Shown: positions 1,183 to 60,771 of the stretch, in pieces
How positions within the stretch are numbered: the stretch's first letter is position 1
Layout of the letters: each line of letters begins with the position of its first letter
IMG/VR virus record: IMGVR_UViG_3300037453_000168
Span: 1-64,000 of that record
Origin: a virus
Taxonomy: Duplodnaviria; Caudoviricetes
DNA: 64,000 nucleotides
Direction: 5' to 3' (one strand)
Notes under the pieces: model-generated
Told to the model about the DNA's origin: nothing
The model's input: the letters and a program-made list of their open reading frames with translations, nothing else
The model's database searches: none
Made by a program: the position numbers and the translations under genes

Positions 1183-1494
1183 ATGGACACCTATCTACGC
1201 ATGAAACCCGAATCATGGGATAGACAGGATGAGGTCAGATGCAGTATAGTCGATATGCTCTATCGCAACGGATTCACGAACGATGTATTCAGCTACGATA
1301 GGGATATCCTGATAATAGGGACTACGGAAGGAGAGCATCAGGTCATCTGCGAGAATATTCGGATAATGTCGCTTTCCCTCGATTCTGAGCCATCTTGGGT
1401 CAAAGACGGTATGAAATTATATCGGTTGGCCGAGGGTCGCTTGTACGACGATTCAAATGGTATTCTAAATGAATCCAGAACAGACCTCTCGTAA
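1183..1494 (+). CDS. Hypothetical protein
   Basis: 103-aa ORF with genome-typical codons. Confidence 0.65.
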   Translation: MDTYLRMKPESWDRQDEVRCSIVDMLYRNGFTNDVFSYDRDILIIGTTEGEHQVICENIRIMSLSLDSEPSWVKDGMKLYRLAEGRLYDDSNGILNESRTDLS

Positions 1495-1789
1495 ACGTGG
1501 CAGACCGTTGAGGAACGACCTCACAGGGGAACGGTATGGTTATCTGACCGTCATATAGAGGTCGCCCTCCGACGATGGCAGGGTATGGTGGGACTGCCGT
1601 TGCGACTGCGGAGAGTATGCAAGGGTCCAATCGTTCGACCTCATAAGCGGTAGGCAGAGGTCATGCGGATGCTATCGCCGTAAGCGTCAGGTCGAGATAT
1701 ACAGGCTGAAAAAGAAGATAGGCAAGTACCTCCGATGGAAATTCAGCGAAATTTATACTTTATATAGGGATGCCGATTGTGTTTCATGA
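1469..1789 (+). CDS. Homing-endonuclease-associated Zn-ribbon protein with in-frame TAG (1556-1558)
   Basis: Reads MNPEQ..DLTGERYGYLTVI*RSPSDDGRVWWDCRCDCG..SGRQRSCGC; paralogue of the 529 and 19377 genes; its TGA overlaps ATG1786. Confidence 0.75.
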
Positions 1790-2655
1790 CCTACAATCGT
1801 CTGAACTCAACGGAGATTAGCGGAAGGTTCATCTCATCGACTCAAGGATGCGTCGTGGGGTCCTCCGAATCCCTCCCCAATGCGGATAAGTACGAGAACG
1901 GGGTCGTGATGCAGTATCTCGGACCAGCGACAGCCGACCTGATACCCAACCATCTGTATAGATGCACATCGGACGGTACGACGTACTTCTGGAAGGATGT
2001 GACCCCTGTCGTGGATGTGGAATATGCTCCCGACAGGGCCATCGGTACGGATGGTAACGGATTGATTATCGCAACCGATGTCACGACACAGGAACTCGGC
2101 ACCCTCTCTGATGCGAGAGCCAACATCCAGACCCAATTGGATAATCTCGATGCCAAGATTGATGACAGGGAATCGTTCTTGCAGAGCGAGATTGACCAGA
2201 ACTACGCCACCCTTGACGATAAGATGGACCACATTACCGACGGATTGGACGAGAGATTCGACCAGAAAGTGGATAAGGTAGAGGGCAAAGGTCTTTCGGA
2301 GGCCGATTTCACGGAACGTGAGAAGTACAAGCTGTCCTCGATAGAGTTCGGCGCACAGGTCAATACAATCGACGAGATTATGATTAACAATGTGACCGTA
2401 CAGCCACATGACAGGATTGTGAACCTTCCTCTGCTGGAGGGGAAGCAGTACCCCATCCAGCAGTTGGTCGCTGGTCAGATGACCGAGGTGAAGCACAACC
2501 TGATAAGGCCCGTGTTCTTCGCACAGGTCAGGGATTCCGCAGGGAACGTCATATCTGGAAGTATGAAGATTGATACGGTGGTGGTCGATTTCACACCAGA
2601 TACATCGGCCGTCAACTGCACCATGTTTGTGATATGCGGTGGTATAGATGACTGA
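1786..2655 (+). CDS. Tail fibre/baseplate-associated protein
   Basis: Coiled-coil middle, KVDKVEGKGLSEADFT tail-fibre motif, C-terminal HNL module shared with neighbours. Confidence 0.75.
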   Translation: MTYNRLNSTEISGRFISSTQGCVVGSSESLPNADKYENGVVMQYLGPATADLIPNHLYRCTSDGTTYFWKDVTPVVDVEYAPDRAIGTDGNGLIIATDVTTQELGTLSDARANIQTQLDNLDAKIDDRESFLQSEIDQNYATLDDKMDHITDGLDERFDQKVDKVEGKGLSEADFTEREKYKLSSIEFGAQVNTIDEIMINNVTVQPHDRIVNLPLLEGKQYPIQQLVAGQMTEVKHNLIRPVFFAQVRDSAGNVISGSMKIDTVVVDFTPDTSAVNCTMFVICGGIDD

Positions 2656-10991: not shown

Positions 10992-12263
10992 ATGGCCATA
11001 GGAAGGACGAACATCTCCATATTCAAGTCGCCAGTGAAGGTATGGGGAATCGAGATAGATGAAACGGTATCTGACTGCTATAACATGGTATCGTATCCTG
11101 CGACGCTATCGACAGGGCAGGGGACATACACTAATGGGGCATACGGTGCGACCCCTATGAGCGGTGCTGGAGCGTCATTCAACGTCGGTTCGTGGGGTTC
11201 GGGGAACTATGCCAAGCTGATAGAGGGAATAAAACCCGTTTCATTCAATGGAACAACATGGGCGGATTTGAATAAGACCAGCGAGACGGACTGGCCTACG
11301 GATAGGGACATATTCACGGAGTTCCCGTTCAGATGGCTATCCATCACTAAAAGCGGTAGCAAGATAACAGTAATGATAGCCGATTCACAATATGCTCCAG
11401 ACAGCACGTTCCAGGATTGGGCGTTCCTCGGTGCCGATGGAACGACTAGGAGGTCTAACTTCCACCTTGGATGCTACACGGCGTCGGGTTCGGTCAGCGG
11501 CGTGTTCTCCAAGAAGGGCACGAGCAACCTTGTCAGCACCGCGCTCAACAGGTATTGGGTCGCTGCATCCAAAAGGGGCACGGAGTATGATTGCCTGCCG
11601 TATCAGATGTGGGTGTATCTCCAATGCCTGTTCCTCGTGCTGTATAAGTCCACGAACTGCCAGACCACGCATTCCAAAGGATATAGCGAAGGCGGCAGCG
11701 TCCAGTCCAACTCCGCATTCGCGGACTACGGCAACAACTACGGGATGTACGGGTCCACTTCAAGCAGTACGGCCCAGAACGCATTCTTCTGGCTGCATAA
11801 CCTCTGGGGCAACATGTATCAGTTCAGCGCATCCGTGTTCGTCAGGGCAGGCTCGACCAAGGCGATATACTACTGCCTGAGCGCCATGTCGAGGTCATCG
11901 AACTGGGACAACAGCTCTTGGAATAATACGAGCACATCATACAGGGCGAAACAGACCAATATCGGTGTCGCATCGGGATCTGTAGGAAAAGCTGTAGGAG
12001 ACTATTACACCAAAGCGTGCGGAACCAACGGTGCGGGATTCCTGCCTGCATCCGATTCAGGCACGGGATCGGCGACAACATACTTCCCCGACTATAGCAG
12101 TGTCGGCTCGTACTCATCGTATGCGGTCTTTGCTTATCTTGGAGGCTACTGTGGTAGCGGTGACTACTGCGGGTTATTCTGTGGCTATGTCAGCAATAGC
12201 TCGACCACCGCGGGCGTGTATTACGGCTCGCGCCTTGCATACAGGGGTGGGCCTAATTAGTGA
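10992..12263 (+). CDS. Receptor-binding protein with C-type-lectin/FGE-like C-terminus (DGR-target-like); ends TAG-TGA
   Basis: HNLWGNMYQF and LGGYCGSGDYCGLF..YYGSRL motifs typical of Mtd-like DGR targets. Confidence 0.75.
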
Positions 12264-15838: not shown

Positions 15839-15977
15839 GACAGTTTCATTGCGCAACGATACAGTCGATAAGCTCAACGAGTTATCGGCTCTTATGGGCG
15901 TCCCAATGAGTTCGGTGATTGATTTCGCAATCGAGGTCTACTATATCAAAAAGACGGAGGGATACAGTGAGAATTAA
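15819..15977 (+). CDS. CopG-like RHH protein (not in the ORF track)
   Basis: MKKKTTKTVSLRNDTVDKLNELSALMGVPMSSVIDFAIEVY; SD gagg. Confidence 0.7.
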   Translation: MKKKTTKTVSLRNDTVDKLNELSALMGVPMSSVIDFAIEVYYIKKTEGYSEN

Positions 15978-16638
15978 CACAGATGCTCTGGACGATGTTG
16001 AACAGGAACAAGAGGAAGAACACGACCGTGACCCCCTTCTCAGGGATTACCGTCGTAGGAACAAGGCGTACACCCACTTGGATAATTCGCAGTTCAAACG
16101 TTGCATATTGAGAGAGGACTTGGTAAGATTGGCATACACGGATAGGAAATCCGCAGTAGCGTTCCTCAGAGCGCACGAGGATGATTTCAGACGTGCAAGG
16201 TTCGATTCACAGGCCAAGGCGGATATGCATAGCGCATTGTCAAAGGACTACTACGGCATCCTGAACAACTCGGACATAGAGTACATCAAATCGGTCCTCG
16301 GACCGAACGTACCGCCCAAGCGCACCGTTGCGAACACCCAATACTGCACATCCCATGAGTATTACGCCGACCCCAAGGATTTCCGTGGATGGATGGCGGA
16401 GTTGCATGATTCTACATTCGTCAGATTCCGCAAGTGGATGAACGACTCGAAGAATCTGGAACGGTATATGAAGAACCTATCGGATGTGGATAGGGACGTG
16501 TTGTGCGAGGTATTCGAGTATCAGCTACAGCGCAGATACGTGATGGGTTTCCAAGTCAAGGAGGGCCTCGATTTCAACGAGGAAACGGACAGACCTTGGA
16601 TTGACCGCATATAGAACGATTACGGGTTGAAGGCATGA
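15967..16638 (+). CDS. Hypothetical, possibly replication-related; TAG at 16612 backed by TGA at 16636
   Basis: GTG start with SD ggaggg; origin-proximal; read-through adds NDYGLKA. Confidence 0.65.
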
Positions 16639-17647: not shown

Positions 17648-18565
17648 ATGGAAACGGTGCTTGTGAGCCATTCGGATTTGGACGGCTACGGCAACAACAT
17701 CATAATATAGACCTATCTCGGGCATATACGTTCTTTCAATATCGGATACAGTGATTTGGAGACCGTGTTGGTTGCGTTGCCCGACAACATACAGCTAATC
17801 ATCACGGACCTGTCGATTCCAGAGCGCACATCCCCGATGCTGGAACGTTTCGCCCATGTGATAATAATAGACCACCATATCACGACCCAATGGGCGGTGG
17901 GATGGGCGGAGAGCACGGGCAACGAGGCCATCGTGGATACGTCGAGGTGTGCCACATGGCTGACATACGAGTACATGAAATCGGTCTACGGGTTCGGCTC
18001 GGAGAAGATGACCTGTTGGGCCAGACTCATAGACGATTACGACAGATATGTTCTGCAATATCCCGAATCAAGACGTCTTAACGTGCTTTTCAACATAACG
18101 GCCGACCCGATAAGGTTCGTGAGGGACGGCATGGAGAAACATCCCGAGACATTGCTGAACCGTGAGTCCGATGATATTGATTACTATCTCGAACAGCAGA
18201 GGAAGTACATAGACAAATCGACGATGTTCGTTCTCAACTACAAGCCGTAGGTCGTGATGACCTTCGCTGAAAGGCACAAATCCGCTATGGCGGAGATAGC
18301 GATTGCCGAGGGGGGTGTGGATTTGTTCTACGGTGTAGACCTGCATTCGATGACGGTCTCGATACGTTCGTCTGTGAAATCCAAGATTGATTGCACCAAG
18401 GTGGCGAAGATGATTAATCCCGATGGCGGAGGCCATCGCAATGCCAGCGGTGCATCCATATCCAACTGGTGCGTCGGATGGAACAATGTGGAGGTCGGGA
18501 CATTCTGTATGCCCCTGTCGTTCCCGTCGAGGGACCTGCCTACCTATTCGGAGGAATCGGAATGA
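17648..18565 (+). CDS. DHH/DHHA1 phosphoesterase with two in-frame TAG codons (17708, 18248)
   Basis: SHSDLDG (before TAG1), IITDLS, IIIDHH, and GGGHRNASG (after TAG2) all lie in one frame. Confidence 0.88.
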
Positions 18566-18753
18566 GAGCCATGCGCATAAACGGACACATAGTGAAATGC
18601 AAGATGTGCAGGAAATACAATGCATCTATGATTTATTTGGGTGTGCCCGTATGCAATCGCTGTCTAAGGCCGTTCCTCATGGGATATCTATGCGGTAGGG
18701 CGAAAGCACTCGATTCAGATGAATCGGAGGATTCCCGATGGTAGATGCGATAA
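18562..18753 (+). CDS. Small Zn-finger protein; TAG18742 backed by TAA18751
   Basis: CKMC..CNRC; ATGA overlap with the upstream gene. Confidence 0.6.
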
Positions 18754-22659: not shown

Positions 22660-22826
22660 CTGAATATGTTTGCTACGGCTGTAATAACTGTTGCTATCTG
22701 AATGAAGAGGACATGAGGGAGCATGGTATGATGGATGAATGGGATGAGGATTATTCGGAGATTAATGACATCTGGTGTCCCTGTGGCGGATGTCGCACTT
22801 AGGTATGTAAGGAGGAAGAGGAATGA
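22656..22826 (+). CDS. Cys-rich protein with in-frame TAG (22800)
   Basis: ..CPCGGCRT*VCKEEEE-TGA; read-through restores the EE-stop/ATGA junction used by the whole array. Confidence 0.72.
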
Positions 22827-43569: not shown

Positions 43570-43608
43570 AGAATATATTTTATATACTTCAATATTTATT
43601 ACATCATT

Positions 43609-43675
43609 GGGATATCCGAACCCGTGTGAAGTACATCCCATTCCATCTCGCTTTTACATGACGGGTATCCCTTTT
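43609..43675 (+). ncRNA. Candidate small structured RNA
   Basis: Own TATA at 43579; GGGATA/TATCCC and ACCCGT/ACGGGT pairings; followed by TTTT; no credible ORF. Confidence 0.4.
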
Positions 43676-43714
43676 ACCAGCCTGATAATTTAAAGAAATC
43701 TTATAAGGGAGTAG

Positions 43715-45490: not shown

Positions 45491-46661
45491 GGATGTCTAC
45501 GGATTCCTCCGCAATCACAAGGAGGACATCGCCCAAGTCCTCGCAGTCGGATTCGATGTTGCAGATACGATACTGCCCAACGGCACGCATCCGTTCGTCG
45601 ATATGACCTTCGATGAGGTCAAGGAGATGTACATCGGTATGATTGAGGTATTGCAGAAACCCCAATGGTCGGTGCAGGAGATTAGGGACGTAGTTTACAA
45701 TTCATGCGCCAAGTACCGTGATGCGGAGAGAGGGGATGCCGAGATACGTAACATGGTCAAGCGTATCGCTCAGACCGAGATGAACCGCATACTTTTCTAT
45801 GCGAAGGAGCAGGAGGCCATCGAGTCGGGAGCGACGGATTCATACTTCATCTGGGCTGGCCCGATAGACAGGCGCATGACCCCTATGTGCCGTTTCCTGC
45901 AAACGGGGGAATTGAAAGGGGAGAACAACAGGGGCGAACCTTACGATTACGAGGAACTCCGTAGCGAACTCCCCGAATGGAGGGAGGAAGGATGGACTCT
46001 GCCCGAATTGAAGGTGATTTGCCGTCAGGTGCATGATGTGTTCTATGCTCACGATGTGGTCAAGACCCCGATGCTATCCGATTGGCAGATGCACATAAAC
46101 TGCCGTCACACGTTCGGATACTCGATGAAAGCACCCAAGCTCGATGCACCGATAGAGGTCGATGGATGGATACAGGTGGATAACGCACAGGAATCGCCTG
46201 CAAGCGACGAGAAACCCCCCGAATATGTAGGCATACCTCCATCGTTGCAAACCCCCTCAGAACCGAAGGAATACGCTTGGGATGGACCGTTGCAGATTGA
46301 GTTCGTAGGGGATGCCGTCATGCAAGCCGACGATACCGATGACATAGACATCTTCGAGACGCCTTTGGCTCAATACACGTTCGGGATAGAGCATCCTATG
46401 AGGAACGTACCCCTGTTCATACTTCCCGAATCGACGGAGAACGACGAATCCGCCATCTTCCAATTCTCCACCGTGAACGAGTTCCAGTTGGGCTCATGGC
46501 TCAGATTCGTCATAGAGGAATTGGATGCTGGATTGGATATGCCTGTGATAGTGGATGTGCTGAACAGCGAATCGGGTATGACCTATCAGGAGATAGGATA
46601 CATACAGAGACATTGGGATTGGCTGTTCGACGTCGCCCTCGATATGGGATGGATACTATGA
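45441..46661 (+). CDS. MuF/SPP1 gp7-like head morphogenesis domain; frame open from 45420 but first ATG at 45603 with no SD
   Basis: IWAGPIDRRMTPMC..HINCRH motif; coding-like upstream extension reachable by a +1 shift from portal. Confidence 0.75.
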   Translation, partial: AYLKGTSEEQYLKYIGKDVYGFLRNHKEDIAQVLAVGFDVADTILPNGTHPFVDMTFDEVKEMYIGMIEVLQKPQWSVQEIRDVVYNSCAKYRDAERGDAEIRNMVKRIAQTEMNRILFYAKEQEAIESGATDSYFIWAGPIDRRMTPMCRFLQTGELKGENNRGEPYDYEELRSELPEWREEGWTLPELKVICRQVHDVFYAHDVVKTPMLSDWQMHINCRHTFGYSMKAPKLDAPIEVDGWIQVDNAQESPASDEKPPEYVGIPPSLQTPSEPKEYAWDGPLQIEFVGDAVMQADDTDDIDIFETPLAQYTFGIEHPMRNVPLFILPESTENDESAIFQFSTVNEFQLGSWLRFVIEELDAGLDMPVIVDVLNSESGMTYQEIGYIQRHWDWLFDVALDMGWIL

Positions 46662-47377
46662 CCGTAGCGACCCTCAACATCCAATGGAAGGTCGAAATAA
46701 GCACCAAGGATTTGAGGGACTATATGAAGTCGCAGAAACGTCTACAGCCTTGGTGCTGTGTCATAGGCACGAAACAGGCCGAGTGGATGGAGTTCGGGAC
46801 ATCCCCTGCGACAAGGGCGGATTGCGAGTACCCGAGCATGAGCGACCCCCAGTTCTATGTGATGAAGGGCAGGGGCAAGAACAGGAAACCCACGTTCGAC
46901 CCTGTTCTCTATTATAAGGAAGTGTATCGCCGTTCGGAGTTCTACCGCAACATATACGATTGGGTCAATCTGAAAGGCGCACCCAACGTAAGCCAGAAGG
47001 AGAAATACGAGATTGCTTGGAGGATGTGCCGTATAATCGCAAAGAACGGGTTGAAACCCCGTCCGTTCTTCCGTCCAGCATTCTATTACATGTGCGCACA
47101 TATACAGGAATGGTGGAATGACGGATAGAGCATCGAGCAGATGGTATATTGCATGGAGAAGAAGGTGGACCAGTTCATAAGGGAGAACCCTACCGACGGG
47201 CTTTCGGATTTACAGCGCAACCTCAACTTCTCTGGTGCCATGAGGATGTCGTTGCATTCGTTCGCAATACCCGACGAGGATGTGCCGAGGGCGTTGAATC
47301 CGCCCGTCAATCCGAGGCCGATAGCCAACGACTTATCAGAGGATAGGGCGAGGGCTACGGGAGAGAGATACCGATGA
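46658..47377 (+). CDS. HK97 gp10-like virion morphogenesis protein with in-frame TAG (47126)
   Basis: MEFGT..PRPFFRPA; the ORF-track pieces 46496-47128 and 47141-47377 are in one frame; TGA overlaps ATG47374. Confidence 0.72.
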
Positions 47378-47511
47378 AGGTCGTTCTAAGGCACAGGGTC
47401 AAGGATGATTCCAATGTCATTCTAATCGACGAATCCCTGTATTTCGAACCTCAGATGTTGGAAATCGACAAATCCGATGAAACACACGACGGACAAGAGT
47501 TTACGGAATAA
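47374..47511 (+). CDS. Small hypothetical protein
   Basis: Coupled 45-aa ORF. Confidence 0.55.
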   Translation: MKVVLRHRVKDDSNVILIDESLYFEPQMLEIDKSDETHDGQEFTE

Positions 47512-47580
47512 TATAAATTATATACTTACATGTGTTATTCAATTATGTAAACCTTCGGGTTTGCAGGAGTGAGTGGAATG
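47512..47580 (+). promoter_or_regulatory. Promoter plus leader hairpin cassette, copy 2
   Basis: tgtaaacc-ttcg-ggtttgca (G-U pair), SD ggagtga, ATG47578. Confidence 0.8.
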
Positions 47581-47928
47581 TCGGTAAGCAGATACCTCGA
47601 ATCGGCGATAAAGGACGAATTGAAATATCACATCGGGAAACTCGGTCTTTCAAGGGCGAAGACCATGTATGTGGATGTAGTGGATGCCCTCGGTTGCATA
47701 AGGAACATCCATGTGTTGGTAAAGCACAAGGCATTGTCGGACGGTAGCAACTGCTCGATATTCAGCATCCTGTCGTACCCCGACTGGTACATATCCTCCG
47801 CTGATTTGATAGGCCATGCGATACTCGACGGCAACGGAATCCGCTACGTCGGAGAGGACTACGGGGATTATACCAAGGACAGGATTTCCGCATGGCTTGA
47901 CAAGGCATTGGAGGAATGGAATCAATGA
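47578..47928 (+). CDS. Hypothetical protein
   Basis: Follows the leader cassette. Confidence 0.7.
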   Translation: MSVSRYLESAIKDELKYHIGKLGLSRAKTMYVDVVDALGCIRNIHVLVKHKALSDGSNCSIFSILSYPDWYISSADLIGHAILDGNGIRYVGEDYGDYTKDRISAWLDKALEEWNQ

Positions 47929-48083
47929 GGTACATCGTCAAGGCGAGCAAGCTGAACGAATACGAAACCCTCGTATTCCCGTTCAGATATACCGTGTATG
48001 ACGGGGATTCGTTCAAGAAGGCCAAGCAGGTGTTCCTCGAATATGCTCAGTTCACAGGCGTGTCCTTCGAGTCAAGACTGTGA
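47925..48083 (+). CDS. Small hypothetical protein
   Basis: Coupled 52-aa ORF. Confidence 0.6.
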   Translation: MRYIVKASKLNEYETLVFPFRYTVYDGDSFKKAKQVFLEYAQFTGVSFESRL

Positions 48084-48128
48084 TTTCATATCAGATAAAT
48101 AGCAACGATAGGATACAAGGGCGATAAC

Positions 48129-48431
48129 ATGAGAAGCGCAGATAAGCTATATCTCGACGTCCCCTACAATTCATGCAGAATCATAGGCTCTGTATGCGAG
48201 AGAGGGGACTGTCGCAACTGCTCGATACCTATAGTGATGCCTGAGAGGGCGAGGCAGATAATAGAACAGGATTCATATTACCGAGCGAGGGATTGGAAGG
48301 ATGCTCTGGATGGGAACGGTCGAGCGTCCATTATGTCCTATATGCACCTCGTCGAGGCCGATGTCAAGGGTCTCCTTGCTTTCATCGGACAGAACGAGGG
48401 ACAGGGAGTATTGGATTTGCAAGGACTGTAA
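48129..48431 (+). CDS. Cys-motif hypothetical protein
   Basis: C..C..C..C cluster. Confidence 0.6.
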   Translation: MRSADKLYLDVPYNSCRIIGSVCERGDCRNCSIPIVMPERARQIIEQDSYYRARDWKDALDGNGRASIMSYMHLVEADVKGLLAFIGQNEGQGVLDLQGL

Positions 48432-48493
48432 GCGCAGATTCCCCGTCAGGGAATTAAAGAAACGATATAAATGATTAGAAGGATGGCGATAAC

Positions 48494-48670
48494 ATGATAT
48501 TAAAGCCGGTATGGTATGATTTCCTCATATGGGATACCTCGGACCCCATGTTCCCTGTTGCAAAAGGGTTCAAGAAGGGTACTCCGCCAGAGATAATCAA
48601 GGCCTATAAGAAGGATTTGAAGGACTATCAAAGGCGCAGAGAGGAAGACCCCTATGAAAGACTCATCTGA
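48494..48670 (+). CDS. Small hypothetical protein
   Basis: 58-aa ORF overlapping the start of the 48654 gene. Confidence 0.55.
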   Translation: MILKPVWYDFLIWDTSDPMFPVAKGFKKGTPPEIIKAYKKDLKDYQRRREEDPYERLI

Positions 48671-50807
48671 GCAGATAGAGAAGAAGGACTGCCCTGGCGG
48701 TATGCACGCCCATACGGGCTATACAGCATGCCATCCGTTGGATAAGCCCCATCGCCCTGGTTCTTCCGCAGACCTGTACCATCAGCAGACGGGCATAGAG
48801 AACACATGGTATCGCAATCACGGAACGACCCGTGAGGATTACGAGAAGGAACATCCCAAGGACAGCACCCCTAAGGCCCCCGAATCCACGGGCGAACCCT
48901 CGGAACCAGAATCCGAATCAAAGCCCAAGCCAGAGCCTGAATCGGATTACAGGGACGAGAAGGTGCCTGGCGTACACCAATGGGATTCCATGAGGGAGAT
49001 TAAGGCGACCAATCCCAAGCTATACAAGAACGTGAGTTCAGCCCGCGAGGTATTGAGGAAGTACGAGGGGAAGGAGGGCGTGAAGTCATCACAGATATAC
49101 AAGCAGTTCGCAAGGGCTCTCCTGAAAGACGTCAAGGACGGATACGGCAAACCCGTAGAACCTCATATAAACCCTCAGCTGTTCAACAGGGTCGAACCGA
49201 GATACGCAATCCAATTCCTCAACGACATATTGAAATCGGCGGAGGAATGCCCGATAGGATGCAGAGCGGTGAAGGACATCAGACTGTATTCGAATAAGGG
49301 TTCCTCTACGCTCATGGCATATCGCTATTACGGTATCGGGTTCGAAGTGAATACGGCGCACAATCTCAAAGACCGCAAAATCGGTTCCAAAGCCACCCTG
49401 ACCAACCTCAAAGGAGAGGAAACGGAATGGGACTTCCACTTCAAAGGACAGGATACGACGAACTCCATAGACCACGAATACGGTCATTCCGTATCCAGAG
49501 AGATATCCGCGCTCAGAATGATGTCCGACGAGGTGATACCAAGGAAGTTCATCGCATCGGAATTGAGGGAATATGCATCCAAGAAATATGATGAGGATGA
49601 CAACAGACCCTCGAAGGAGAGATGGGGCATGTACATCGGCGAATACATCCTACCTCTGTCTGGGCATAAATACGGCGAACCCGAATATTACAAGTACGGG
49701 GAGATTAGAATATCTAGGTGCGACGAGAGCATCGTATCGGATATACAGAAGATTGCGGAAAGATACGGATGCGAGGTAAAGATTGACAAGAAGGAGAAAC
49801 ACTACAAATCTCTCGATTCCGAACGTCCCGACCTATATAAATTCACACTCAGGTTTGAGAAGTCGAAGAAGGGCATACCCGATGCAATCAAGGAGAAGTT
49901 CAAGGAAGACCCCCTCAGCACGCTCGATAAGATGGAATACGAACTCGACTATGCGGACAAGATTGCGACAGAACGTGTGAAGGATTGCGAGGAACTCTAT
50001 AAGAAGATATACAACGTGGACAGAATCGACCCTACCGACGTATATTCTGGATACGGTTTCTCCGCAACATCGGGATTCGATAAGAAGATATCCGCAGACA
50101 GCATGAAGGGCAGGTCATGCGAGGAGAGGTTCGCAGAGGCCTATGCGGATTTCGTCATCCGTGGGGAGAACGCCAACTCCATGTCGAAACTCCTTGTCGC
50201 TCATTCCCAATACACCTATCACAGATGCATGCTGGATTACGAAGGCTCGTTCGAGGATTTCGTGAAGGACAAGATAGGCATGGACAAGTTCGAAAGGCTG
50301 ATTACGAAGTCCATCGACAGGATAGAGGACGTCAATCTAAGATTCGTAGATTCTATCAAGAAGGGTATCGAAAACAGACAAAACGACACCATCCGCAAGC
50401 ATCAGGCATTCATCGAGTCCGTCAGAAAGCAGTTCGATATGAGAACGACGAAATACAGAGTGCCTAAGAGATTGATAGCATTCGGACAGGAATATACCTT
50501 GGATAATGGGTATCTCCAACCCGAAGACGATTCGGACACGGCATCGGGAACACAATACAGATTCGTCACGAAGCACGATTTTTGGAAGGAATACGATGAA
50601 GGCGAGGGTCAGAATCCCGATAGCACCACGATAATCCTCTACGACAACGGTCGTACTTGGGCGAGCTATATGGATTCCAAGCCAGATAAGTCCGATATGA
50701 GGTCGGGAGTAATCTGCACCGAATGGGGTTTCATCTGTTACAACTGCACTCCCACAAGGGATGATGACGGGCATGGGGATTACATATACGATGTAGAACT
50801 CAATTGA
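48654..50807 (+). CDS. Large protein with zincin-like metallopeptidase motif
   Basis: IDHEYGH (HExxH) and distal EERFAEAYADF; N-terminal C..H.H..C.H motif. Confidence 0.7.
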   Translation: MKDSSEQIEKKDCPGGMHAHTGYTACHPLDKPHRPGSSADLYHQQTGIENTWYRNHGTTREDYEKEHPKDSTPKAPESTGEPSEPESESKPKPEPESDYRDEKVPGVHQWDSMREIKATNPKLYKNVSSAREVLRKYEGKEGVKSSQIYKQFARALLKDVKDGYGKPVEPHINPQLFNRVEPRYAIQFLNDILKSAEECPIGCRAVKDIRLYSNKGSSTLMAYRYYGIGFEVNTAHNLKDRKIGSKATLTNLKGEETEWDFHFKGQDTTNSIDHEYGHSVSREISALRMMSDEVIPRKFIASELREYASKKYDEDDNRPSKERWGMYIGEYILPLSGHKYGEPEYYKYGEIRISRCDESIVSDIQKIAERYGCEVKIDKKEKHYKSLDSERPDLYKFTLRFEKSKKGIPDAIKEKFKEDPLSTLDKMEYELDYADKIATERVKDCEELYKKIYNVDRIDPTDVYSGYGFSATSGFDKKISADSMKGRSCEERFAEAYADFVIRGENANSMSKLLVAHSQYTYHRCMLDYEGSFEDFVKDKIGMDKFERLITKSIDRIEDVNLRFVDSIKKGIENRQNDTIRKHQAFIESVRKQFDMRTTKYRVPKRLIAFGQEYTLDNGYLQPEDDSDTASGTQYRFVTKHDFWKEYDEGEGQNPDSTTIILYDNGRTWASYMDSKPDKSDMRSGVICTEWGFICYNCTPTRDDDGHGDYIYDVELN

Positions 50808-50943
50808 AACGGTGCTAAGAAACTGAAGGATTGAATTTTCCTGAAAGTACAAACCGCCCGTGTATGATTTGTACTTTCGTACAAACCTCTTCCTCATTTT
50901 CCAATTAAAATAGTTATATAACTGATAATCAAGGTTAAGGTTC

Positions 50944-52269
50944 ATGTACTCCAATATCTCCGAACTCCCCACAGAGGTCAAGAACGCATTGGACGAGGAC
51001 GATTGCAAAATATTCCTTGAAAAATTCAATGAGAAGAACCCTCAGACCGAAGAAGAATATAGGGACGCTATGAGGTACGCATGGGAATGTTGCAAGAACC
51101 TGCCCTCGTCGTTCTCGTTCGATATAATCGCATCGGTCGAGGATGTAGATTCGGACGGGGAGCTAATCACAATCAAATCGTTATCCGACCAGATGGATAA
51201 GTTCATCGAGCAGGGCGGTGTCGTTCAATCGGAGCATGGGGACTATCGCACAGCGCATATATGGGGGTGGGATGAGTACACCGACCCCGACACAGGATAT
51301 CCTGGGGTGCTTGTCCATGGCAACGTGTTCGGGGGTCGTGGGGAGAACTCGGAATATGCGAAGGCCAGACAGGACTTCCTGAACGGTAAGAACAACCTGT
51401 CAATCGCTGGCGATGCATCAATCGAAGGCTACGAATGCGACAAGGGAAGATGTTTCGTCAGGAGGAATCTGACTCAGCTTATGGAGATTTCTCTGGTAGA
51501 CAGCCCAGCGAACCCCTATGCTAAAATGCTCTGGTACAACGACAAGGCCATCGTGAAAGGGAACACGAATCTCAAAGTCAAGAACGTAGGCATCCACAAA
51601 TCCTACAATGAATGCGATTTGGAAATGCTGAGGAAGAAACTCTCCGATTTCGATACAAAGATTACCTCGAAGGGACTGATAGTCAAGGATAAGGTTTCCG
51701 TAGGGATTTCTGCGGAATCCGTAGAAATCGTCAAATCAAAAATCAAAACACTCGGGCAACTTGTCGAGGTGTCTTCGGATTCCGTAGTAATCGATACGAA
51801 TAAGCGCATCTTGGAGCGTGAATTCAAGAAGTCCTTCGACAATAAGGAATGCGATACCGACGGCATTCTGACCAAGAACGTCGGAAAAGGAAGGTTCACA
51901 GAACTTTTCAACCGCTCGCTGATAAGACCGAACAAGGACGGTATATGGGCATTCGACGGTTCGATATTGAAGAACCGTGACGAGGATTGGGATGATAACG
52001 GCAATTACATAGGCCCGAAGAACACGATTTACGTCTGGGATGCCAACGGGAACGAGATTCTGTGTTTCGCTCCCGTCGACGAGCACGATACCTCCGACGG
52101 CTGGTCCATATCGAATGTCGGTTCGGAGAGATACTGGAAGTCCGATTCATGGGGCAGTCATTGGGATTCGATAGATGAAGTGGTCGATGCAATCAGACGG
52201 CATAAGCGCAACGTGACGATTAAGAGAGGGGTCTATTGGGACGATGCCAATTACCTTGAGGATATCTAA
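50944..52269 (+). CDS. ChaB-like domain plus HK97-type prohead protease plus C-terminal extension
   Basis: MYSNISELP..AW..K (ChaB-like); ASVEDVDSDGE, HG, LSIAG, EISLVDSPANP. Confidence 0.85.
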   Translation: MYSNISELPTEVKNALDEDDCKIFLEKFNEKNPQTEEEYRDAMRYAWECCKNLPSSFSFDIIASVEDVDSDGELITIKSLSDQMDKFIEQGGVVQSEHGDYRTAHIWGWDEYTDPDTGYPGVLVHGNVFGGRGENSEYAKARQDFLNGKNNLSIAGDASIEGYECDKGRCFVRRNLTQLMEISLVDSPANPYAKMLWYNDKAIVKGNTNLKVKNVGIHKSYNECDLEMLRKKLSDFDTKITSKGLIVKDKVSVGISAESVEIVKSKIKTLGQLVEVSSDSVVIDTNKRILEREFKKSFDNKECDTDGILTKNVGKGRFTELFNRSLIRPNKDGIWAFDGSILKNRDEDWDDNGNYIGPKNTIYVWDANGNEILCFAPVDEHDTSDGWSISNVGSERYWKSDSWGSHWDSIDEVVDAIRRHKRNVTIKRGVYWDDANYLEDI

Positions 52270-52322
52270 TAAAATGAAATATATACTTCAATATATATTT
52301 ACAATCAAAAACAGGTGGTAGG

Positions 52323-52973
52323 ATGTACGAATTTCAGATAAAGAAGATGAGAAACATACAGAAATCGAGGTACACGTTCAAGGTAGATACATCTTCTGCG
52401 ACGATAGGACAGCCCGTCAAAGGCGGTCAGTTCGACAGCAGAGATTACGTCATACCCCTCTCGAACCTGTCGGTAAAGTTCGGGAGGGAGGTCATCGCAA
52501 GCGGTCTGTCTGGAGAAATCTACATAAACGAATCCGATTTGATGGATACGGCCGAGGAAGACGGACTGTACGAGAGGATGTACGCAGAACTCATAACGTC
52601 CCGTGAGAGGAAACTCGAAGAGGAACACGGGAACGATGATGACTTCGGCGAACTCGAAGAACAGCTATGGGATGAACTCATAAAGGTGAACCGCAGACTC
52701 GATGATGCGTTCGACAACATATCCTATGAGCTACTGTCAATCGGCAGGATTCCTGCGATATCGTTCAAGGGATTCGTCTACGACGGGGATTCGGAGTTGG
52801 AGGACGAGTATGTAGATGAACTCAAAATGAAATTCACTTGCAGACTGTCGATACCCGACTTCGGGGAACACGAAATCACGGCGGAGACAGATTCCGCATC
52901 CTTCGTCCCGTCCGACGGGATGATTGACGAGATGATTTCCTATATGGAAATGGAGAACGAGGAAACGGAGTGA
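52323..52973 (+). CDS. Acidic putative internal head protein
   Basis: MYEFQIKKMRNIQKS leader. Confidence 0.7.
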   Translation: MYEFQIKKMRNIQKSRYTFKVDTSSATIGQPVKGGQFDSRDYVIPLSNLSVKFGREVIASGLSGEIYINESDLMDTAEEDGLYERMYAELITSRERKLEEEHGNDDDFGELEEQLWDELIKVNRRLDDAFDNISYELLSIGRIPAISFKGFVYDGDSELEDEYVDELKMKFTCRLSIPDFGEHEITAETDSASFVPSDGMIDEMISYMEMENEETE

Positions 52974-52992
52974 CGATTCGCATTGAACTATT

Positions 52993-53931
52993 ATGAGGGA
53001 TACTATGGAAGATATAGGCAAGATGATAGGGGACAGACGCTGGTTCAGGGAGAGGGGTCAAATCTTCAAGGAAATGGCACCCGACATGACGGCGCAGATG
53101 AATGACTATGCCTTTATGATAGACGAAATCATAACGGATTTCGGTCTTAAAGGCGGATACGCATTATCCGAAGAGGACGGACATACGACGATGATATTCA
53201 ACGTCAACGACTGCACGAAACCCTGCGACAAGTATCAGACATCGCAGGACGGGGATTGGCTGTCCGTTCAGTTGGATTCGATATCGAAGGAGTGCGGTTC
53301 TGCTGGTGTAGGCGGAGGGTACTCACAGGCGAGATATTCCGATAAGACCGAGAAATCGGATTTGACTCCCGATGATGACCTATACAGGGATATCAAGAGT
53401 AGCGGTAACCTGGTAAGGGAAATCGATAACGGTGACGGCACCCGTACCGAACTCTACGGTTGGCAATCCGAATATGAGTCGGGGTACAGCCCATGCATAT
53501 ATAGGTTCGTGCTTATCGGAGACTCTATGGTAGATGGAGAGATATATGTCACTCCGAGAGCGGTCAGAGATGCATGCGACCAATTCAGTCTAGCATATCC
53601 GTTCCTTCTCAAATCCAAGAAGTCCAAGGTCAAGAAGTCCACCGATGCCCTGCTCCATCTCAAACCGCTCGGTCAATGGTATCACATGACTTCCGACGGA
53701 TATCCCGATTACGTCACCGAAGAGTTCGCAATCCGCATGGAGGATTATGGGGACACACCGCAGGACAATGCGGATTATCTCGCAGACTATTGCGAGAGGG
53801 TCTATGACGGCTCCCGTTGGATTGGCAACGTGGACCATTACTACATCGTTGAGGACAACGATATCAAGGAGATAAGCAGGGATGATGCGAAAGCCCTTGC
53901 AAAATCCAAGACCAATAAGAATGGAAGATGA
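52993..53931 (+). CDS. Acidic putative internal head protein
   Basis: KSKKSKVKKS and KSKTNK motifs. Confidence 0.7.
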   Translation: MRDTMEDIGKMIGDRRWFRERGQIFKEMAPDMTAQMNDYAFMIDEIITDFGLKGGYALSEEDGHTTMIFNVNDCTKPCDKYQTSQDGDWLSVQLDSISKECGSAGVGGGYSQARYSDKTEKSDLTPDDDLYRDIKSSGNLVREIDNGDGTRTELYGWQSEYESGYSPCIYRFVLIGDSMVDGEIYVTPRAVRDACDQFSLAYPFLLKSKKSKVKKSTDALLHLKPLGQWYHMTSDGYPDYVTEEFAIRMEDYGDTPQDNADYLADYCERVYDGSRWIGNVDHYYIVEDNDIKEISRDDAKALAKSKTNKNGR

Positions 53932-54165
53932 GAGGACATCGAGAGGTTAAATACTACAAACCCGTTACTAAATCTGTCTTGGATAGGTAAATCTACCTTG
54001 ATGACTTGGACCATAGGCCCGAACCGTGCCTACGAAAGTGAAACGGTTCACATATTCTCATACATTTTATGATATTACGGATACCGTCGTTATGGTACTC
54101 CGACCTGTTCAATTCAAAAAGGCTTATAAGCGTTAATCAGAATCTCTTGCCAAAGAGGTCTATAA

Positions 54166-55098
54166 ATGGATAGTGATACCGCATGGGCGCAATTCAAGAA
54201 GAACAATCAGACCTCGGTAGAGGATAAACTCGACGTCATCCTTGCACAGCAACAGGAGATTATCACCGATACATCCCGTGTCGCTGACCTCGTTCCCCTC
54301 GTTACGGGGGACAAGGCGGAGGAGGACGCTTTGGAGGAAACGGGCGATTTGGAAGAGGTGCCTGACGAATCCATTGACGAGGATGCCCCTCTCGAAGATT
54401 CGGGAGAGATATCCGAGGACGAGGACAATCCATTCGCTTTCCTCGATGAATCCGACGATTCAGGCGACGAGAACCAAGAGTATGATGGGGAATACCTATC
54501 AGACGATGGAATCGCCGAGGATGACGGAGAATACGAGGAAACTGACGAGGATTCGGATGTCGAGGACTTCGACTATCCCGAAGAGGATGAATCCGAAGAG
54601 GATTACGAATCCTCAGAGGAATCCGACGAGCCGTATGAAAGCGACGAGTCCGACGAGGAAACTGACGAGGACGGTCATCAGAGCCAATCCGAGGAATCCG
54701 ATGAAGAGGAATCATACGACGAATCGGAGGATGTTGAATCGGAGGACGAATCCGAAGAGGATGAATCCGATGAAGAGGACTACATCTCATTCGACGAGAT
54801 TGACGAGGACGAAGAATCCGACGAGATTGACGAGGACGATAAGGCGAAGAAATCCGCCCGTCCAGACACAAAGACCATCAAATCCGTGTCGGACAAGGCA
54901 CGCATGACGGTGATATCGAGAGTCCAAAGACCCGATGATTCCCTATCGTTCGGAAGGTCGAGCAATTCCGACCAGATTGCCGATGCTCTTTTCAAATCCG
55001 CAAAGGAGTTCGAGATAGGGTTCGGCATAGACCCCCATAAGGTAGTCGAGAAGGATTGGGCGGATTACCGCATGATGAAGAAACTAAACTCATTCTGA
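54166..55098 (+). CDS. Scaffolding-type protein with very acidic low-complexity core
   Basis: Directly upstream of the MCP; D/E/S repeats. Confidence 0.7.
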   Translation: MDSDTAWAQFKKNNQTSVEDKLDVILAQQQEIITDTSRVADLVPLVTGDKAEEDALEETGDLEEVPDESIDEDAPLEDSGEISEDEDNPFAFLDESDDSGDENQEYDGEYLSDDGIAEDDGEYEETDEDSDVEDFDYPEEDESEEDYESSEESDEPYESDESDEETDEDGHQSQSEESDEEESYDESEDVESEDESEEDESDEEDYISFDEIDEDEESDEIDEDDKAKKSARPDTKTIKSVSDKARMTVISRVQRPDDSLSFGRSSNSDQIADALFKSAKEFEIGFGIDPHKVVEKDWADYRMMKKLNSF

Positions 55099-55113
55099 TT
55101 TCAAAGTGATAAC

Positions 55114-56337
55114 ATGACTGGAGATATTTCAAGGGGAATCACTCAGATTGGCGGAGAACTCGTTACCATCGGGTACTCCAACAACGGAGCTGGAACCAAA
55201 GCGCTTATCAATGACTTCTATGACGAACAGCTCCGTATCGGAAAGTCGGCTGGATTCACAGGATACGGCACGGCTGGCGTATTCAACGCAATCATGGGAA
55301 AGGAGATTACGGCTGGCATGTTCGCATCCAACAACATCCTCACCGCCATCGGTGCAAGGCCCTACGACCATGAGGGAATGCGTATCGCATACGACCTCGC
55401 TCAGAAGGGCGGAATCGGAACAAGGAGGGAGGGACACATCCCCGACTCCGTGAAGATGCCCATCAAGCAGGTGCGCCAGCCCTACAAGGAGCTTCCGTTC
55501 TCGTTCAACTACGGACTCGGACTGAAAGCCCTTGAATCCAAGGACGATACCATCGCATACCAGCAGTACATCGACATGATGACCGCCAACTACTCCGATG
55601 CGCTCGACTACGACCTTCTCCGTCCGATTACCGAGGCCCAGCCCGTGGACAACGGAGAGGAAATCTGCCTGACTGGAATCGAGAGGGCAATCGCATCCTC
55701 CGTAGAGGTCGGAGAGACCTACGGAACCGTGGCAATCACAGGCGATATGGTCTCCCCCTACGGCGGAGTCGCATCCGACCTGTACGACGTCCGTACCGCC
55801 AGCACTCAGAACAACTTCGACGGATACGTCAACAACGTCGAGGGAGTCCTCTCGCTGGATGACATGAACGGCCTGTATTCTGGATGCGCACCCTATTGGG
55901 CGGACCAGGCGAACCCCAACAACAAGATATTCGGAATGTCCGTCGTGGCATTGGAGAAGATTTCTGGACTGATGAACTCTCAGAACCTCTGGCTCGAGTC
56001 CGTGTTCGTGCAGAGGGACTTCAACGGCGTCAAGACCATGCCTGGAAGGGAGGTCGGAGGTATCCTCGCATCCGCATATAGGAACATCCCTATCATCATG
56101 GACGGTAACTACAACTACGATGCGACCACCAAGAGGATTGGGGGCTCGCTCGGAACAATCGGACTCTACGACCTCGACAACCTCTATATGAGACTGCTCA
56201 CTCCTGTCGAGTTCCGCAGTACCGAGGACTATTCCATCACAAGGGAACTTCAGGAGTTCAATGTGATGCAGTCCCGTATGGAAACTGGAATCTCCAAGTT
56301 CCTCGGACAGGGAAGGATAGTCAACAAGACCGCTTGA
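55114..56337 (+). CDS. Major capsid protein (HK97-fold, inferred)
   Basis: Position after protease and scaffold; 407 aa; strongest codon bias; followed by a terminator. Confidence 0.85.
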   Translation: MTGDISRGITQIGGELVTIGYSNNGAGTKALINDFYDEQLRIGKSAGFTGYGTAGVFNAIMGKEITAGMFASNNILTAIGARPYDHEGMRIAYDLAQKGGIGTRREGHIPDSVKMPIKQVRQPYKELPFSFNYGLGLKALESKDDTIAYQQYIDMMTANYSDALDYDLLRPITEAQPVDNGEEICLTGIERAIASSVEVGETYGTVAITGDMVSPYGGVASDLYDVRTASTQNNFDGYVNNVEGVLSLDDMNGLYSGCAPYWADQANPNNKIFGMSVVALEKISGLMNSQNLWLESVFVQRDFNGVKTMPGREVGGILASAYRNIPIIMDGNYNYDATTKRIGGSLGTIGLYDLDNLYMRLLTPVEFRSTEDYSITRELQEFNVMQSRMETGISKFLGQGRIVNKTA

Positions 56338-56343
56338 AAACAA

Positions 56344-56370
56344 GAGGGGGCCTATACCCCTCAATTTTCC
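56344..56370 (+). terminator. GC hairpin plus T tract
   Basis: gagggg-gcctata-cccctc then aattttcc. Confidence 0.7.
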
Positions 56371-56418
56371 CTAATTTTATATTATTTCCAGATTATCACT
56401 TGTTCAAAGTGATAAATC

Positions 56419-57963
56419 ATGGCCAATGAGTTCGCACTTAAAAAACTGCAACAGCACGGTTTCGTACCCAAGTTCGCAGTTACAAAGACGAAGAAATCCA
56501 AGATTAAGAAGTTCGAGGACGTCTACTATGTTCCTCTCGCATACATCGGTATGGCGGAACTCAGAGCACACTCTCCGACAAAGAATTACAATAGAGAATA
56601 TTCCTGCAATATTCCGTTTTCCACAGAGGCTGGCGATGGACATGTTGTAATATATATGCATATCTACAATGATAATGCATATTCCTATTCAAACTCTGAC
56701 TACGACGTCTATCGTGAAATGGAGGATAGATTCGACCGCGACCCCAACGATACCGAGGCCGAGACATATCTTCAAAATTATAATCTCCGTAGAGAGAACA
56801 CATCCGATGTAGTCAATATCAAAGTCACAGGTGCTATGAAATACTATATCTCGGGATTGCTCGGTGCTGGAACAGAATGTGTTTATAATATATCCCTCAA
56901 AGAACGTTATGATGTTCAAGAGGCCCTCGACCAATTCGCTCAATCTTCCGAAACAGGATGGAGCAAAGTGATGGAGAAAGTGAACGAGGCCCTTGCTGGT
57001 CAGGAGGTATTCGAGCAGGCTGGAGAGTCCCTGCCTACCGAGATTTCCATATCTACAGGTTTCGGAGACCTGTTATTGAAGATAGATGAGGTCTATTACG
57101 CTACATACGGTGCATACATGGGTGAAGTTATGGGCGTAGAGGATAAAGTACAGGCCGACGTGTCTGTAATCCTTCAGCCTATCAAAGATGATGAGACTAG
57201 ATACGAAGGTCAAAGGTACGGGCGTGAGTCCAGTATAAGGGAGAGGTCGTTCACACCGAAAGGATATGATATATCCGTCATAGGACGCATCACGGACTAT
57301 AACACGCAACTCAGTACGGGCCATGAACCTAAAAGGGAGTCTTGGACGAGGGATTTCGGACACGAGGGTGCATCCACTCTCGACGAGGCGAAATCCATTA
57401 TCGGACAGAACATCAAGGAAATCTATGACGAGTGGACCGCTTTCGTAGAATCCGAGAGAAACTATGAGAGGGAGGGACACGGCAGAGGTCGTTCCGCAAC
57501 CTATGAGAATACTGCTGAATGGGCATGGAACTACGGAGATACAAAGGATGATGTGAATTACGAAGAATTCCAAGACAGGGAGATGGCAGATAGGGTCGAA
57601 TCCGAAGTCAAATCACTTGTTCCAGAGCTATACAGATTCGTATATATTTCTGCGAATGATGATTACAACGACAGAGGATATTCTTATTTCATTTTGAATC
57701 TGAGAGAACGTAGTACAGATTCGGATAAAGTGAATGCTGTTAAGACCATCCTTGAAATGAATGGTTATCAGATATTGGATGTATTAAGTGGCTATGGCGG
57801 TTATGTGAACATCTTGTTCTATCCATCCGTCTATAAGACCAAGAAGATGAAGAAATCCATCAAGCAGACCTACATGAACCTCGTCAAGTCCCTCTCCAAA
57901 ACGAGGAACACGACCAAAGCAGAATCATCAATAAAAAACAAAGTCGCCAATCAAAGGAAGTGA
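56419..57963 (+). CDS. Putative internal head protein
   Basis: MANEFALKKLQQHG..KKSKIKK leader; basic KS-rich tail. Confidence 0.7.
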   Translation: MANEFALKKLQQHGFVPKFAVTKTKKSKIKKFEDVYYVPLAYIGMAELRAHSPTKNYNREYSCNIPFSTEAGDGHVVIYMHIYNDNAYSYSNSDYDVYREMEDRFDRDPNDTEAETYLQNYNLRRENTSDVVNIKVTGAMKYYISGLLGAGTECVYNISLKERYDVQEALDQFAQSSETGWSKVMEKVNEALAGQEVFEQAGESLPTEISISTGFGDLLLKIDEVYYATYGAYMGEVMGVEDKVQADVSVILQPIKDDETRYEGQRYGRESSIRERSFTPKGYDISVIGRITDYNTQLSTGHEPKRESWTRDFGHEGASTLDEAKSIIGQNIKEIYDEWTAFVESERNYEREGHGRGRSATYENTAEWAWNYGDTKDDVNYEEFQDREMADRVESEVKSLVPELYRFVYISANDDYNDRGYSYFILNLRERSTDSDKVNAVKTILEMNGYQILDVLSGYGGYVNILFYPSVYKTKKMKKSIKQTYMNLVKSLSKTRNTTKAESSIKNKVANQRK

Positions 57964-58539: not shown

Positions 58540-58555
58540 CTCTAAATATATACAT

Positions 58556-60356: not shown

Positions 60357-60661
60357 TGTACGAGAAATGCTTGGAATGGGCGGAGCATCACGGATTCGAC
60401 CAAGTGGAATTGTTCCGTCGCACGATTGCCAACACCGAGACAAAGGACAATCAATCCGATACGTCCCCCGTCGTTCCTAAGTCGGTTCGGGACGATGAAC
60501 ATATATCCATACCGACCGATAAGAAGAAATCGCCCAGGAACGATTTGATAACGACCTCCGACGATATGCTCAGGATACTGTTGAAGACCTCGCATAGAAA
60601 CTCGGAGATATATGCAAGAGCGGTGGCGGAGATTAAATGGAGAGGACTGGAACGAATATAA
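60263..60661 (+). CDS. Hypothetical protein
   Basis: SD gagggtg. Confidence 0.6.
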   Translation: MPTHVVRYSCKDSSRQEFRTLESRYYSNSKVMYEKCLEWAEHHGFDQVELFRRTIANTETKDNQSDTSPVVPKSVRDDEHISIPTDKKKSPRNDLITTSDDMLRILLKTSHRNSEIYARAVAEIKWRGLERI

Positions 60662-60669
60662 TCCGTGTG

Positions 60670-60771
60670 ATGATTGAACATGAGATATTCTGGGAGTCCA
60701 TACTTCCAGACGTCATGTAGGCAATCGAACTCAATCAGGTTTGGAACGACATACGCAGAGAACGTTTTTAA
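60670..60771 (+). CDS. Small ORF with in-frame TAG (60718)
   Basis: MIEHEIFWESILPDVM*AIELNQVWNDIRRERF fills the gap between two genes. Confidence 0.45.

Follow-up and report, generated by a model that had tools for sequence, protein, structure and literature searches.

Does the amber codon TAG end translation in a tailed, probably archaeal virus known from metagenomic sequence, or does it stand for an amino acid inside the virus's genes? The DNA in question (hereafter the window) covers positions 1 to 64,000 of a linear IMG/VR record of 78,931 bp, IMGVR_UViG_3300037453_000168, from an uncultivated tailed virus (Caudoviricetes). The completeness of the 78,931-bp contig is estimated at about 75%, the window is the bulk of the virus genome, and all coordinates below are counted from its first base. 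An initial annotation, made from the letters and their translations, had listed ten in-frame TAGs within genes that look intact when the codon is read through, and had argued that TAG is a sense codon decoded as pyrrolysine (Pyl) with the help of the host rather than as glutamine (Gln) as in code 15. All ten are present and lie in open reading frames (ORFs) bounded by TGA or TAA (Table 1). We find that at least five intact genes of this virus contain TAG in frame and that it is avoided as the sole stop, and we read it as a sense codon. As to the residue, TAG is probably read as pyrrolysine supplied by a gut Methanomassiliicoccales host of the 'Genetic Code 34' type.

Six of the TAG sites, in five genes, lie inside proteins supported by homology or by a family profile. 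Two of the six are in the DHH/DHHA1 phosphoesterase gene, which under the standard code appears as ORFs of 164 and 103 amino acids (aa) in the same frame with a single TAG (18248) between them, while the TAG at 17708 severs its N-terminal DxD motif. When both codons are read through, Pfam DHH covers residues 12-122 of the protein and DHHA1 residues 243-281, and 19 uninterrupted homologues (298-398 aa, 32-56% identical) align with it across both TAG columns, the DHH and GGGH motifs included. AlphaFold2 predicts for the read-through protein a single confident two-domain fold (pLDDT 91.3, pTM 0.83), in which residue 29, the first TAG, lies in a helix and residue 209, the second, at the start of a strand. 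The same gene is found in an independent ENA assembly, whose DNA was not seen, cut after identical residues (...NYKP) and with the next fragment following 6 nt on in the same frame, which argues against an assembly error; a metagenome scan with 44 nt around TAG 18248 gave no match. The Lar-like protein covers profile positions 1-58 of 58 of Pfam Lar_restr_allev, scoring 41 bits where 28.6 are required, only when TAG 21055 is read through, and its post-TAG sequence YWNRRASE mirrors the C-terminus EWNRRVEE of a TAG-free tandem paralogue (21096-21275).

The remaining three genes behave in the same manner. In 1469-1789 the phrog_374 match (residues 13-82) spans TAG 1556, coding potential is positive on both sides of it, and the match to 'Caudoviricetes sp. 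vir335' (GenBank BK063680, NC_134205), an 83-kb virus from baboon faeces, extends 13 residues before the TAG and 52 after it. In 19290-19916 phrog_374 occupies residues 37-106 and phrog_3377 residues 106-206, the latter spanning TAG 19773, and coding potential beyond the TAG is highest in this frame; the next gene begins at 19913 and is preceded by the Shine-Dalgarno-like GGTGGGGAG. The head-module protein 46649-47377 has uninterrupted homologues in the related loci L095 (ORF 4893-5582), L103 and L102, which align 20-84 residues beyond TAG 47126. Thus, when genes were re-called with TAG as sense and their products aligned, as the initial annotation had recommended, homologues or profiles continued across the TAG in all five genes, and its statement that family motifs run on past the TAG is upheld by the DHH/DHHA1, Lar_restr_allev, phrog_374 and phrog_3377 matches. 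Genes 1469-1789 and 19290-19916 form a paralogous trio with 391-1137, having in common an LxGxRFGRLxV...WxCxCDCG...SCGC Zn-ribbon (phrog_374, annotated as part of an HNH endonuclease); vir335 also has this module.

The aligned TAG columns are variable overall and point to no single canonical residue, which is the outcome expected of neutral drift to a non-canonical one. The first DHH column holds M/Q/F/R/K/E/V/S and the second K/R/L/C/N/A/D/S/V; the paralogues have A, K or G at the column of 1556, the L095, L103 and L102 homologues have L, F and G at that of 47126, and a homologue in the related locus L092 has R at that of 26793. Glutamine is the commonest residue of the first DHH column (5/18), which speaks for a Gln reading, and is missing from every other aligned column, which speaks against it.

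Five genes appear to end on TAG (12258, 16612, 18742, 26793 and, counted as a possible terminator, 22800), that is 5 of about 108 or 5% or less of the apparent stops, and all five reach a TGA or TAA within 7 codons, as against 32% of the other genes (p ~0.0035). The first four had been described with their back-up stops exactly so, and the accompanying claim that no gene relies on TAG alone is borne out, the fifth possible end being backed as well. No gene in this genome is ended by TAG alone, and a back-up stop behind every TAG end argues that TAG terminates unreliably. Under the standard code the stop usage is TGA 76, TAA 26 and TAG 8; with TAG as sense it becomes TGA 79 and TAA 29, and coding density goes up by just 1.2 points, from 90.2% to 91.4%.

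Furthermore, every ORF of 13 related loci was searched (tblastn) against the whole contig, the best-scoring frame being kept at each place so that off-frame shadow matches were removed from the list of stops lying inside matches. The only stops more than about 13 residues inside these best-frame matches were TAGs (1556, 17708, 18248 and 47126), and no TGA or TAA was found deep inside any of them. Read-through ORFs end on an ATGA or TGA-ATG coupling junction in 7/9 cases, compared with 30% of random frame walks (p ~0.004), as had been proposed for them, and several of the junction ATGs are the starts of called downstream genes. In no well-supported gene does read-through produce an out-of-frame overlap of more than 60 nt; an apparent case at 19773 vanishes because the next gene starts at 19913. 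The length of the extension after TAG, compared with that after TGA or TAA, was also tried as a test and gave no discrimination, because neighbouring genes are often in the same frame.

Four of the ten sites have evidence of another kind. For 18762, 35509 and 60718 what favours read-through is codon-usage coding potential alone, which prefers the read-through frame on both sides of the TAG, and it is plausible that these three genes read through it. Gene 18738-19046 also has weak matches to several Pfam helix-turn-helix (HTH) families, and its earliest usable start without read-through would be 18840. The frame of 35419-35589 has the best coding potential over 35240-35740, where an overlapping 166-aa ORF in another frame (35202-35702) scores as non-coding; no homologue of the 35419-35589 product was found. 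At 22800 read-through gains 7 residues only. The initial annotation had counted at least nine genes as fragmented by standard gene calling; five of these are secure, three stand on coding potential only, and one can be read either way. Three other TAGs were considered as internal and rejected, namely 68971, outside the window, which comes before M27, where the major tail protein really begins, and 42139 and 43712, which lie upstream of the TerL and portal starts.

These features resemble closely what has been described in methanogens. Kivenson et al. 2024 (bioRxiv 10.1101/2024.09.30.615893) demonstrated by proteomics that Methanomethylophilus alvi and Methanococcoides burtonii decode TAG genome-wide as pyrrolysine, named this 'Genetic Code 34' and classified TAGs in four categories; viruses are not mentioned in that preprint. 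Category 1 is an internal TAG with homology before and after it and an extension of >15 aa, and here belong the DHH gene with both its TAGs, 46649-47377, 1469-1789 and 19290-19916, the Lar-like gene coming close with its extension of 13 aa; category 4 is read-through with an out-of-frame overlap of >60 nt. The contig as a whole has five genes in or near category 1, five short extensions and no large out-of-frame overlap. The virus therefore displays the pattern that the preprint calls 'fully recoded', with TAG at no more than 5% of apparent stops, TAG positions not conserved between homologues and no PYLIS-like structure; it differs in being a virus genome without its own pylT or pylS, which would rely wholly on its host. 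In Ca. Methanomethylophilus alvus UAG makes up 1.6% and UAA 17% of stops (Borrel et al. 2014, PMC4153887), and the same authors argued that an in-frame amber codon is a stable mutation in such a host; the stops of the virus are likewise TGA-dominant and TAA-minor, with near-zero TAG. A viral precedent for reading a host from stop codons is given by smacoviruses, whose amber-stop depletion (4.25%) was taken to hint at Methanomassiliicoccales as hosts (Diez-Villasenor & Rodriguez-Valera 2019, PMC6336856). There too a low use of TAG as terminator mirrors a Pyl-decoding host, but smacoviruses are small single-stranded DNA viruses for which stop depletion only, and no internal TAG, was reported.

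A gut Methanomassiliicoccales host would supply tRNA-Pyl, PylRS and PylBCD, and the virus would bring no decoding machinery. Under constant amber suppression in such a host, a TAG arising at a tolerant position would be nearly neutral and could persist, and TAG would be unreliable as a terminator, so that real gene ends would use TGA or TAA and the rare TAG ends would be backed nearby. No match to the PylS family was found on the viral contig, and none to Rfam families.

We also asked whether TAG could instead stand for a canonical residue, Gln or another, inserted by a suppressor tRNA. The gene for this tRNA would lie in the quarter of the viral genome that the contig lacks, or else in the host, which might then be bacterial. 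We consider this reading unlikely. Gut phages provide a precedent, TAG-to-Gln recoding being known among them (reported by Ivanova 2014 and Borges 2022), and such code-15-type phages reportedly carry many TAGs, gain much coding density when recoded, encode their own suppressor tRNAs and recode their late genes. Our virus has in common with them that genes are split by an in-frame TAG under the standard code, but it has about ten TAGs, its density gain is merely 1.2 points, and its TAGs are mostly in early accessory genes rather than late ones (6/10 at 17.6-22.8 kb). The initial annotation had noted the lack of a tRNA with CUA anticodon in the window; ARAGORN detects no tRNA of any kind in the window or in the whole contig of 78,931 bases, about 75% complete. 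Related locus L103 encodes tRNAs Leu-CAA and Ser-UGA (16350-16522) and L104 encodes Leu-UAA, Leu-CAA, Pro and Glu (3622-4276); no CUA anticodon occurs among the tRNAs of these two relatives. The closest TerL matches, at about 53% identity, are in Clostridia/Bacillota prophages, which would favour a bacterial host, but TerL alone is common to them and the virus, and no other common gene was found within 10 kb on either side of it. The capsid, portal and tail module, on the other hand, is related only to viruses labelled as viruses of methanogens, and the structural relatives thus bear archaeal labels, unlike those of code-15-type phages. Density, tRNA, early-gene and capsid-relative results therefore all fit the preference of the initial annotation for host-supplied pyrrolysine over code 15.

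That TAG is mainly a stop, with leaky or programmed read-through giving mostly truncated and a few full-length products, perhaps in a regulatory manner, appears rather improbable to us. Such a mechanism would agree with the base context, since the base after the TAG is a purine at 9/10 sites and the preceding base is often A, and with the clustering of in-frame TAGs, 6/10 of which lie in one 5.2-kb block of early accessory genes (17600-22830) and one in the head module (scan statistic P ~0.001 for a window width chosen after the fact); moreover, in the relative L092 two genes seem truly to terminate on TAG. The DHH enzyme, however, would need two read-throughs in order to be functional, and its truncated products would lose either metal-binding motif I or the GGGH motif of DHHA1. 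Nor do the 90 nt downstream of the TAGs fold better than control stretches (-22.1 vs -19.7 +/- 5.6 kcal/mol), and the back-up stop behind every TAG end speaks against TAG as a dependable terminator. A bias of the genome itself touches the base context: CTAG is among the palindromes it avoids (see below), hence C never precedes an in-frame TAG.

Least credible of all is a third view, in which the virus is defective and its accessory genes are decaying by nonsense mutation to TAG, or in which sequencing or assembly went wrong at these sites. In its favour, most affected genes are accessory and about half of the single-base paths to a stop give TAG. Against it, the nonsense hits number six or more, with zero frameshifts and zero TGA or TAA hits; the DHH gene, despite its two TAGs, is otherwise intact in catalytic motifs and in predicted fold; the read-through ORFs stop precisely on coupling junctions; every TAG end is followed by a back-up stop; the same interruption occurs in the independent ENA assembly; and the genome is densely coding.

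The attribution of pyrrolysine decoding to a methanogen host draws on the relatives of the virus and on its promoter. About 25 proteins match vir335, whose Methanomassiliicoccales host is a label in its GenBank record field. The two viruses have TerL, portal, protease, capsid protein, tail genes, dUTPase and ParB in common, are similar in size and are both TGA-dominant and TAG-poor in their stops (75/10/4 in vir335, counted from strand-restricted ORF calls); they differ in that the core proteins are just 34-45% identical and the early module is not common to both. A scan of vir335 revealed no secure internal TAG. When the capsid protein was compared with 50,697 GenBank phage records, vir335 and a virus labelled Methanofastidiosa were the only matches, and no capsid of a bacterial phage matched among these records. 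A single-sequence IMG/VR scan with the capsid protein returned no match, and ESM Atlas yielded no information on the host. No peptidoglycan hydrolase was recognised among the proteins of the virus.

Archaeal promoters had also been suggested at the outset, and the intergenic motif that we find is indeed TATA-box-like. A conserved TTTATATA-type motif of about 24 nt, gaataatataWWTTATATACTT, is enriched; it lies 40-60 nt upstream of start codons, often right after the previous stop, and we take it to contain the archaeal TATA-box consensus. The core TTATATAMT occurs 11 times, 1.1 being expected, with 10 occurrences on the + (coding) strand. Judged from its sequence and placement, this motif is probably the main promoter of the virus, made up of a TATA box and an A/T-rich part resembling a transcription factor B recognition element. 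Sigma-70-like promoters and intrinsic terminators were at chance level and not enriched. Hairpins of the form GGAGGG-loop-CCCTCC with short T-rich runs occur right after long structural genes (Table 1); they are terminator-like and fall below the threshold of the simple scan.

Several observations weigh against the interpretation of TAG as host-supplied pyrrolysine. The tie to the host rests on vir335-type relatives and sequence clues, and the host evidence is the weakest link of the pyrrolysine reading. Phage-like genes are present (RusA, Lar and a Sigma70_r4_2-type HTH); the Sigma70_r4_2 match (26844-27473, 209 aa) was itself set aside as a sign of a bacterial host because its HTH is N-terminal (residues 35-78) and there is no region 2. 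A suppressor tRNA may be encoded in the missing quarter, the contig being only about 75% complete. With the codon usage of the genome about half of the single-base paths to a stop yield TAG, so that the fact that all six are TAG has by itself p ~0.015. A 72-kb relative (capsid 49% identical) is binned in a bacterial metagenome-assembled genome (MAG) containing RpoD, which would also suit a bacterial host. The close relative L092 (capsid 78% identical) ends 4/24 genes on TAG, and two of these ends, if read through, would overlap the next genes out of frame by more than 60 nt; they look like true termination, so that TAG is not pure sense throughout the lineage, and the host of L092 may treat TAG differently. 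Finally, the conserved genes of the other relatives yielded no in-frame TAG, within the limited DNA covered.

Other features of these relatives bear on the same points. Those found through the capsid and DHH proteins have TGA-rich, TAG-poor stops, with gene ends (TGA/TAA/TAG) of 25/7/0 in L103, 9/1/0 in L104, 18/6/0 in L089 and 26/12/2 in L088. Neither McrA nor PylS was found in the MAG containing the 72-kb relative. The stops of that relative (TGA 26, TAA 12, TAG 2) are unlike those of the chromosomal loci of its MAG (TAA 21, TGA 11, TAG 5), for which reason it has probably been wrongly binned there. In L092 a Cys-rich TAG-ended ORF (1155-1652) runs 61 more codons, reaching a WNRR at its C-terminus and an ATGA junction with the next gene; L092 may thus be a second virus with an internal TAG, and Pfam did not confirm 1155-1652 as Lar. 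A 276-aa capsid fragment in L112, considered as cut by a TAG, is cut by a scaffold gap instead.

Host-supplied pyrrolysine in this virus would extend Genetic Code 34 to a virus that has none of its machinery. Full-text literature searches, whose coverage did not include the paper describing vir335, returned no report of pyrrolysine codons inside viral genes. A 2026 paper on a database of archaeal viruses (PMC13465236) detected no alternative code among 3,708 of their genomes; its criterion was a threshold on the gain in coding density (5-10% is customary), by which a sparse TAG pattern would be missed.

The cluster of TAGs in the early block may reflect weak constraint, recent acquisition or regulation. 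It is tempting to suppose that these TAGs tie Lar, DHH, the regulators and the HNH-associated proteins to the supply of charged tRNA-Pyl, and hence to methylamine growth, but we hold this to be doubtful. That the genetic code would in this way let the virus gauge the physiology of its host, or confine it to Pyl-decoding hosts, is to our mind equally speculative.

The remaining content of the genome is that of a tailed virus with essentially all window genes on the + strand. Its early module encodes RusA, the DHH/DHHA1 phosphoesterase, two Lar-like proteins, a helicase, ParB_N, a radical-SAM protein and dUTPase, and the window also encodes tail and tail-fibre genes and an HK97-type capsid module. 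The region 36963-41671 is likely a DNA-modification module, in which ParB_N (36963-37799) is followed by tandem paralogues (37777-38688 and 38667-39593) matching phrog_842, 'beta-glucosyl-HMC-alpha-glucosyltransferase', then by two genes of no known function and the radical-SAM protein (40721-41671); this gene content may point to hypermodification of the viral DNA. A 470-bp AT-rich stretch without a convincing gene (15019-15490) separates the tail module from the early one; it contains 2.1 copies of a 20-bp tandem repeat (15208-15249), has inverted TTATATAAT boxes at 15283-15311 and may be a replication origin or a regulatory region. An intergenic run of about ten G residues (12690-12705), ahead of gene 12755, could be prone to slippage. 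Over the whole contig the palindromes GATC (6 copies), CTAG (10) and CCGG (7) are avoided, about 270-300 being expected from base composition, whereas TCGA is over-represented with 572 copies; such avoidance suggests pressure from host restriction systems.

Table 1. Coordinates of the TAG-containing genes, apparent TAG ends, head-module genes and regulatory motifs (aa, amino acids).
Feature	Position	Strand	Remark
Zn-ribbon protein, phrog_374-like, 106 aa	1469..1789	+	TAG 1556-1558; ATGA end overlaps next start 1786
DHH/DHHA1 phosphoesterase, 309 aa	17636..18565	+	TAGs 17708-17710 and 18248-18250; ATGA end
Winged-helix regulator, 102 aa	18738..19046	+	TAG 18762-18764 (codon 9); ATGA end
Zn-ribbon and HTH protein, 208 aa	19290..19916	+	TAG 19773-19775; ATGA end overlaps start 19913
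Lar-like protein, 61 aa	20914..21099	+	TAG 21055-21057; 13-aa extension
Cys-rich small protein	22656..22826	+	TAG 22800-22802, then 7 codons to TGA in ATGA junction
56-aa ORF	35419..35589	+	TAG 35509-35511; TGA end directly followed by ATG
Head-module protein, 242 aa, downstream of portal	46649..47377	+	TAG 47126-47128; ATGA end
44-aa ORF, weakest case	60637..60771	+	TAG 60718-60720; coding potential only
Tail-fibre-like gene	10992..12263	+	TAG 12258; tandem TAG-TGA end
Gene	15919..16638	+	TAG 16612, 7 codons, then TGA
Small Cys-rich protein	18562..18753	+	TAG 18742, two more codons, then TAA
Gene	26517..26813	+	TAG 26793, 5 codons, then TGA
Head module	42172..57963	+	TerL, portal, protease-like, major capsid protein
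TerL	42172-43569	+	Pfam Terminase_3 and Terminase_3C matches; vir335 identity 44%
Portal	43715-45490	+	vir335 identity 44%
Protease-like	50944-52269	+	vir335 identity 34%
Major capsid protein	55114-56337	+	vir335 identity 45%
Promoter-like motif copy	35176..35199	+	(a/g)aa(g/t)aatataWWTTATATACTT
Further motif copies	starts 17384, 29029, 31020, 43580, 47518, 58567 (window); 64025, 66669, 78108 (beyond)		
GGAGGG-loop-CCCTCC hairpins	7875-7930, 9566-9640, 13560-13632, 35132-35201, 56338-56418, 58514-58580		

Since TAG lies inside intact genes, standard gene callers truncate or split genes of this virus. If TAG is indeed read as pyrrolysine supplied by the host, viral proteins contain pyrrolysine, the small set of natural pyrrolysine proteins would gain viral members, and several genes of the virus would be expressed only in a UAG-decoding host, which would make the genetic code a barrier of host range. 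Screens based on coding-density gain would overlook such recoding, while the combination of a few internal TAGs with gene ends free of TAG would offer a simple sequence marker by which uncultivated viruses could be assigned to Pyl-decoding methanogens, organisms that matter for methane emission from gut and rumen.

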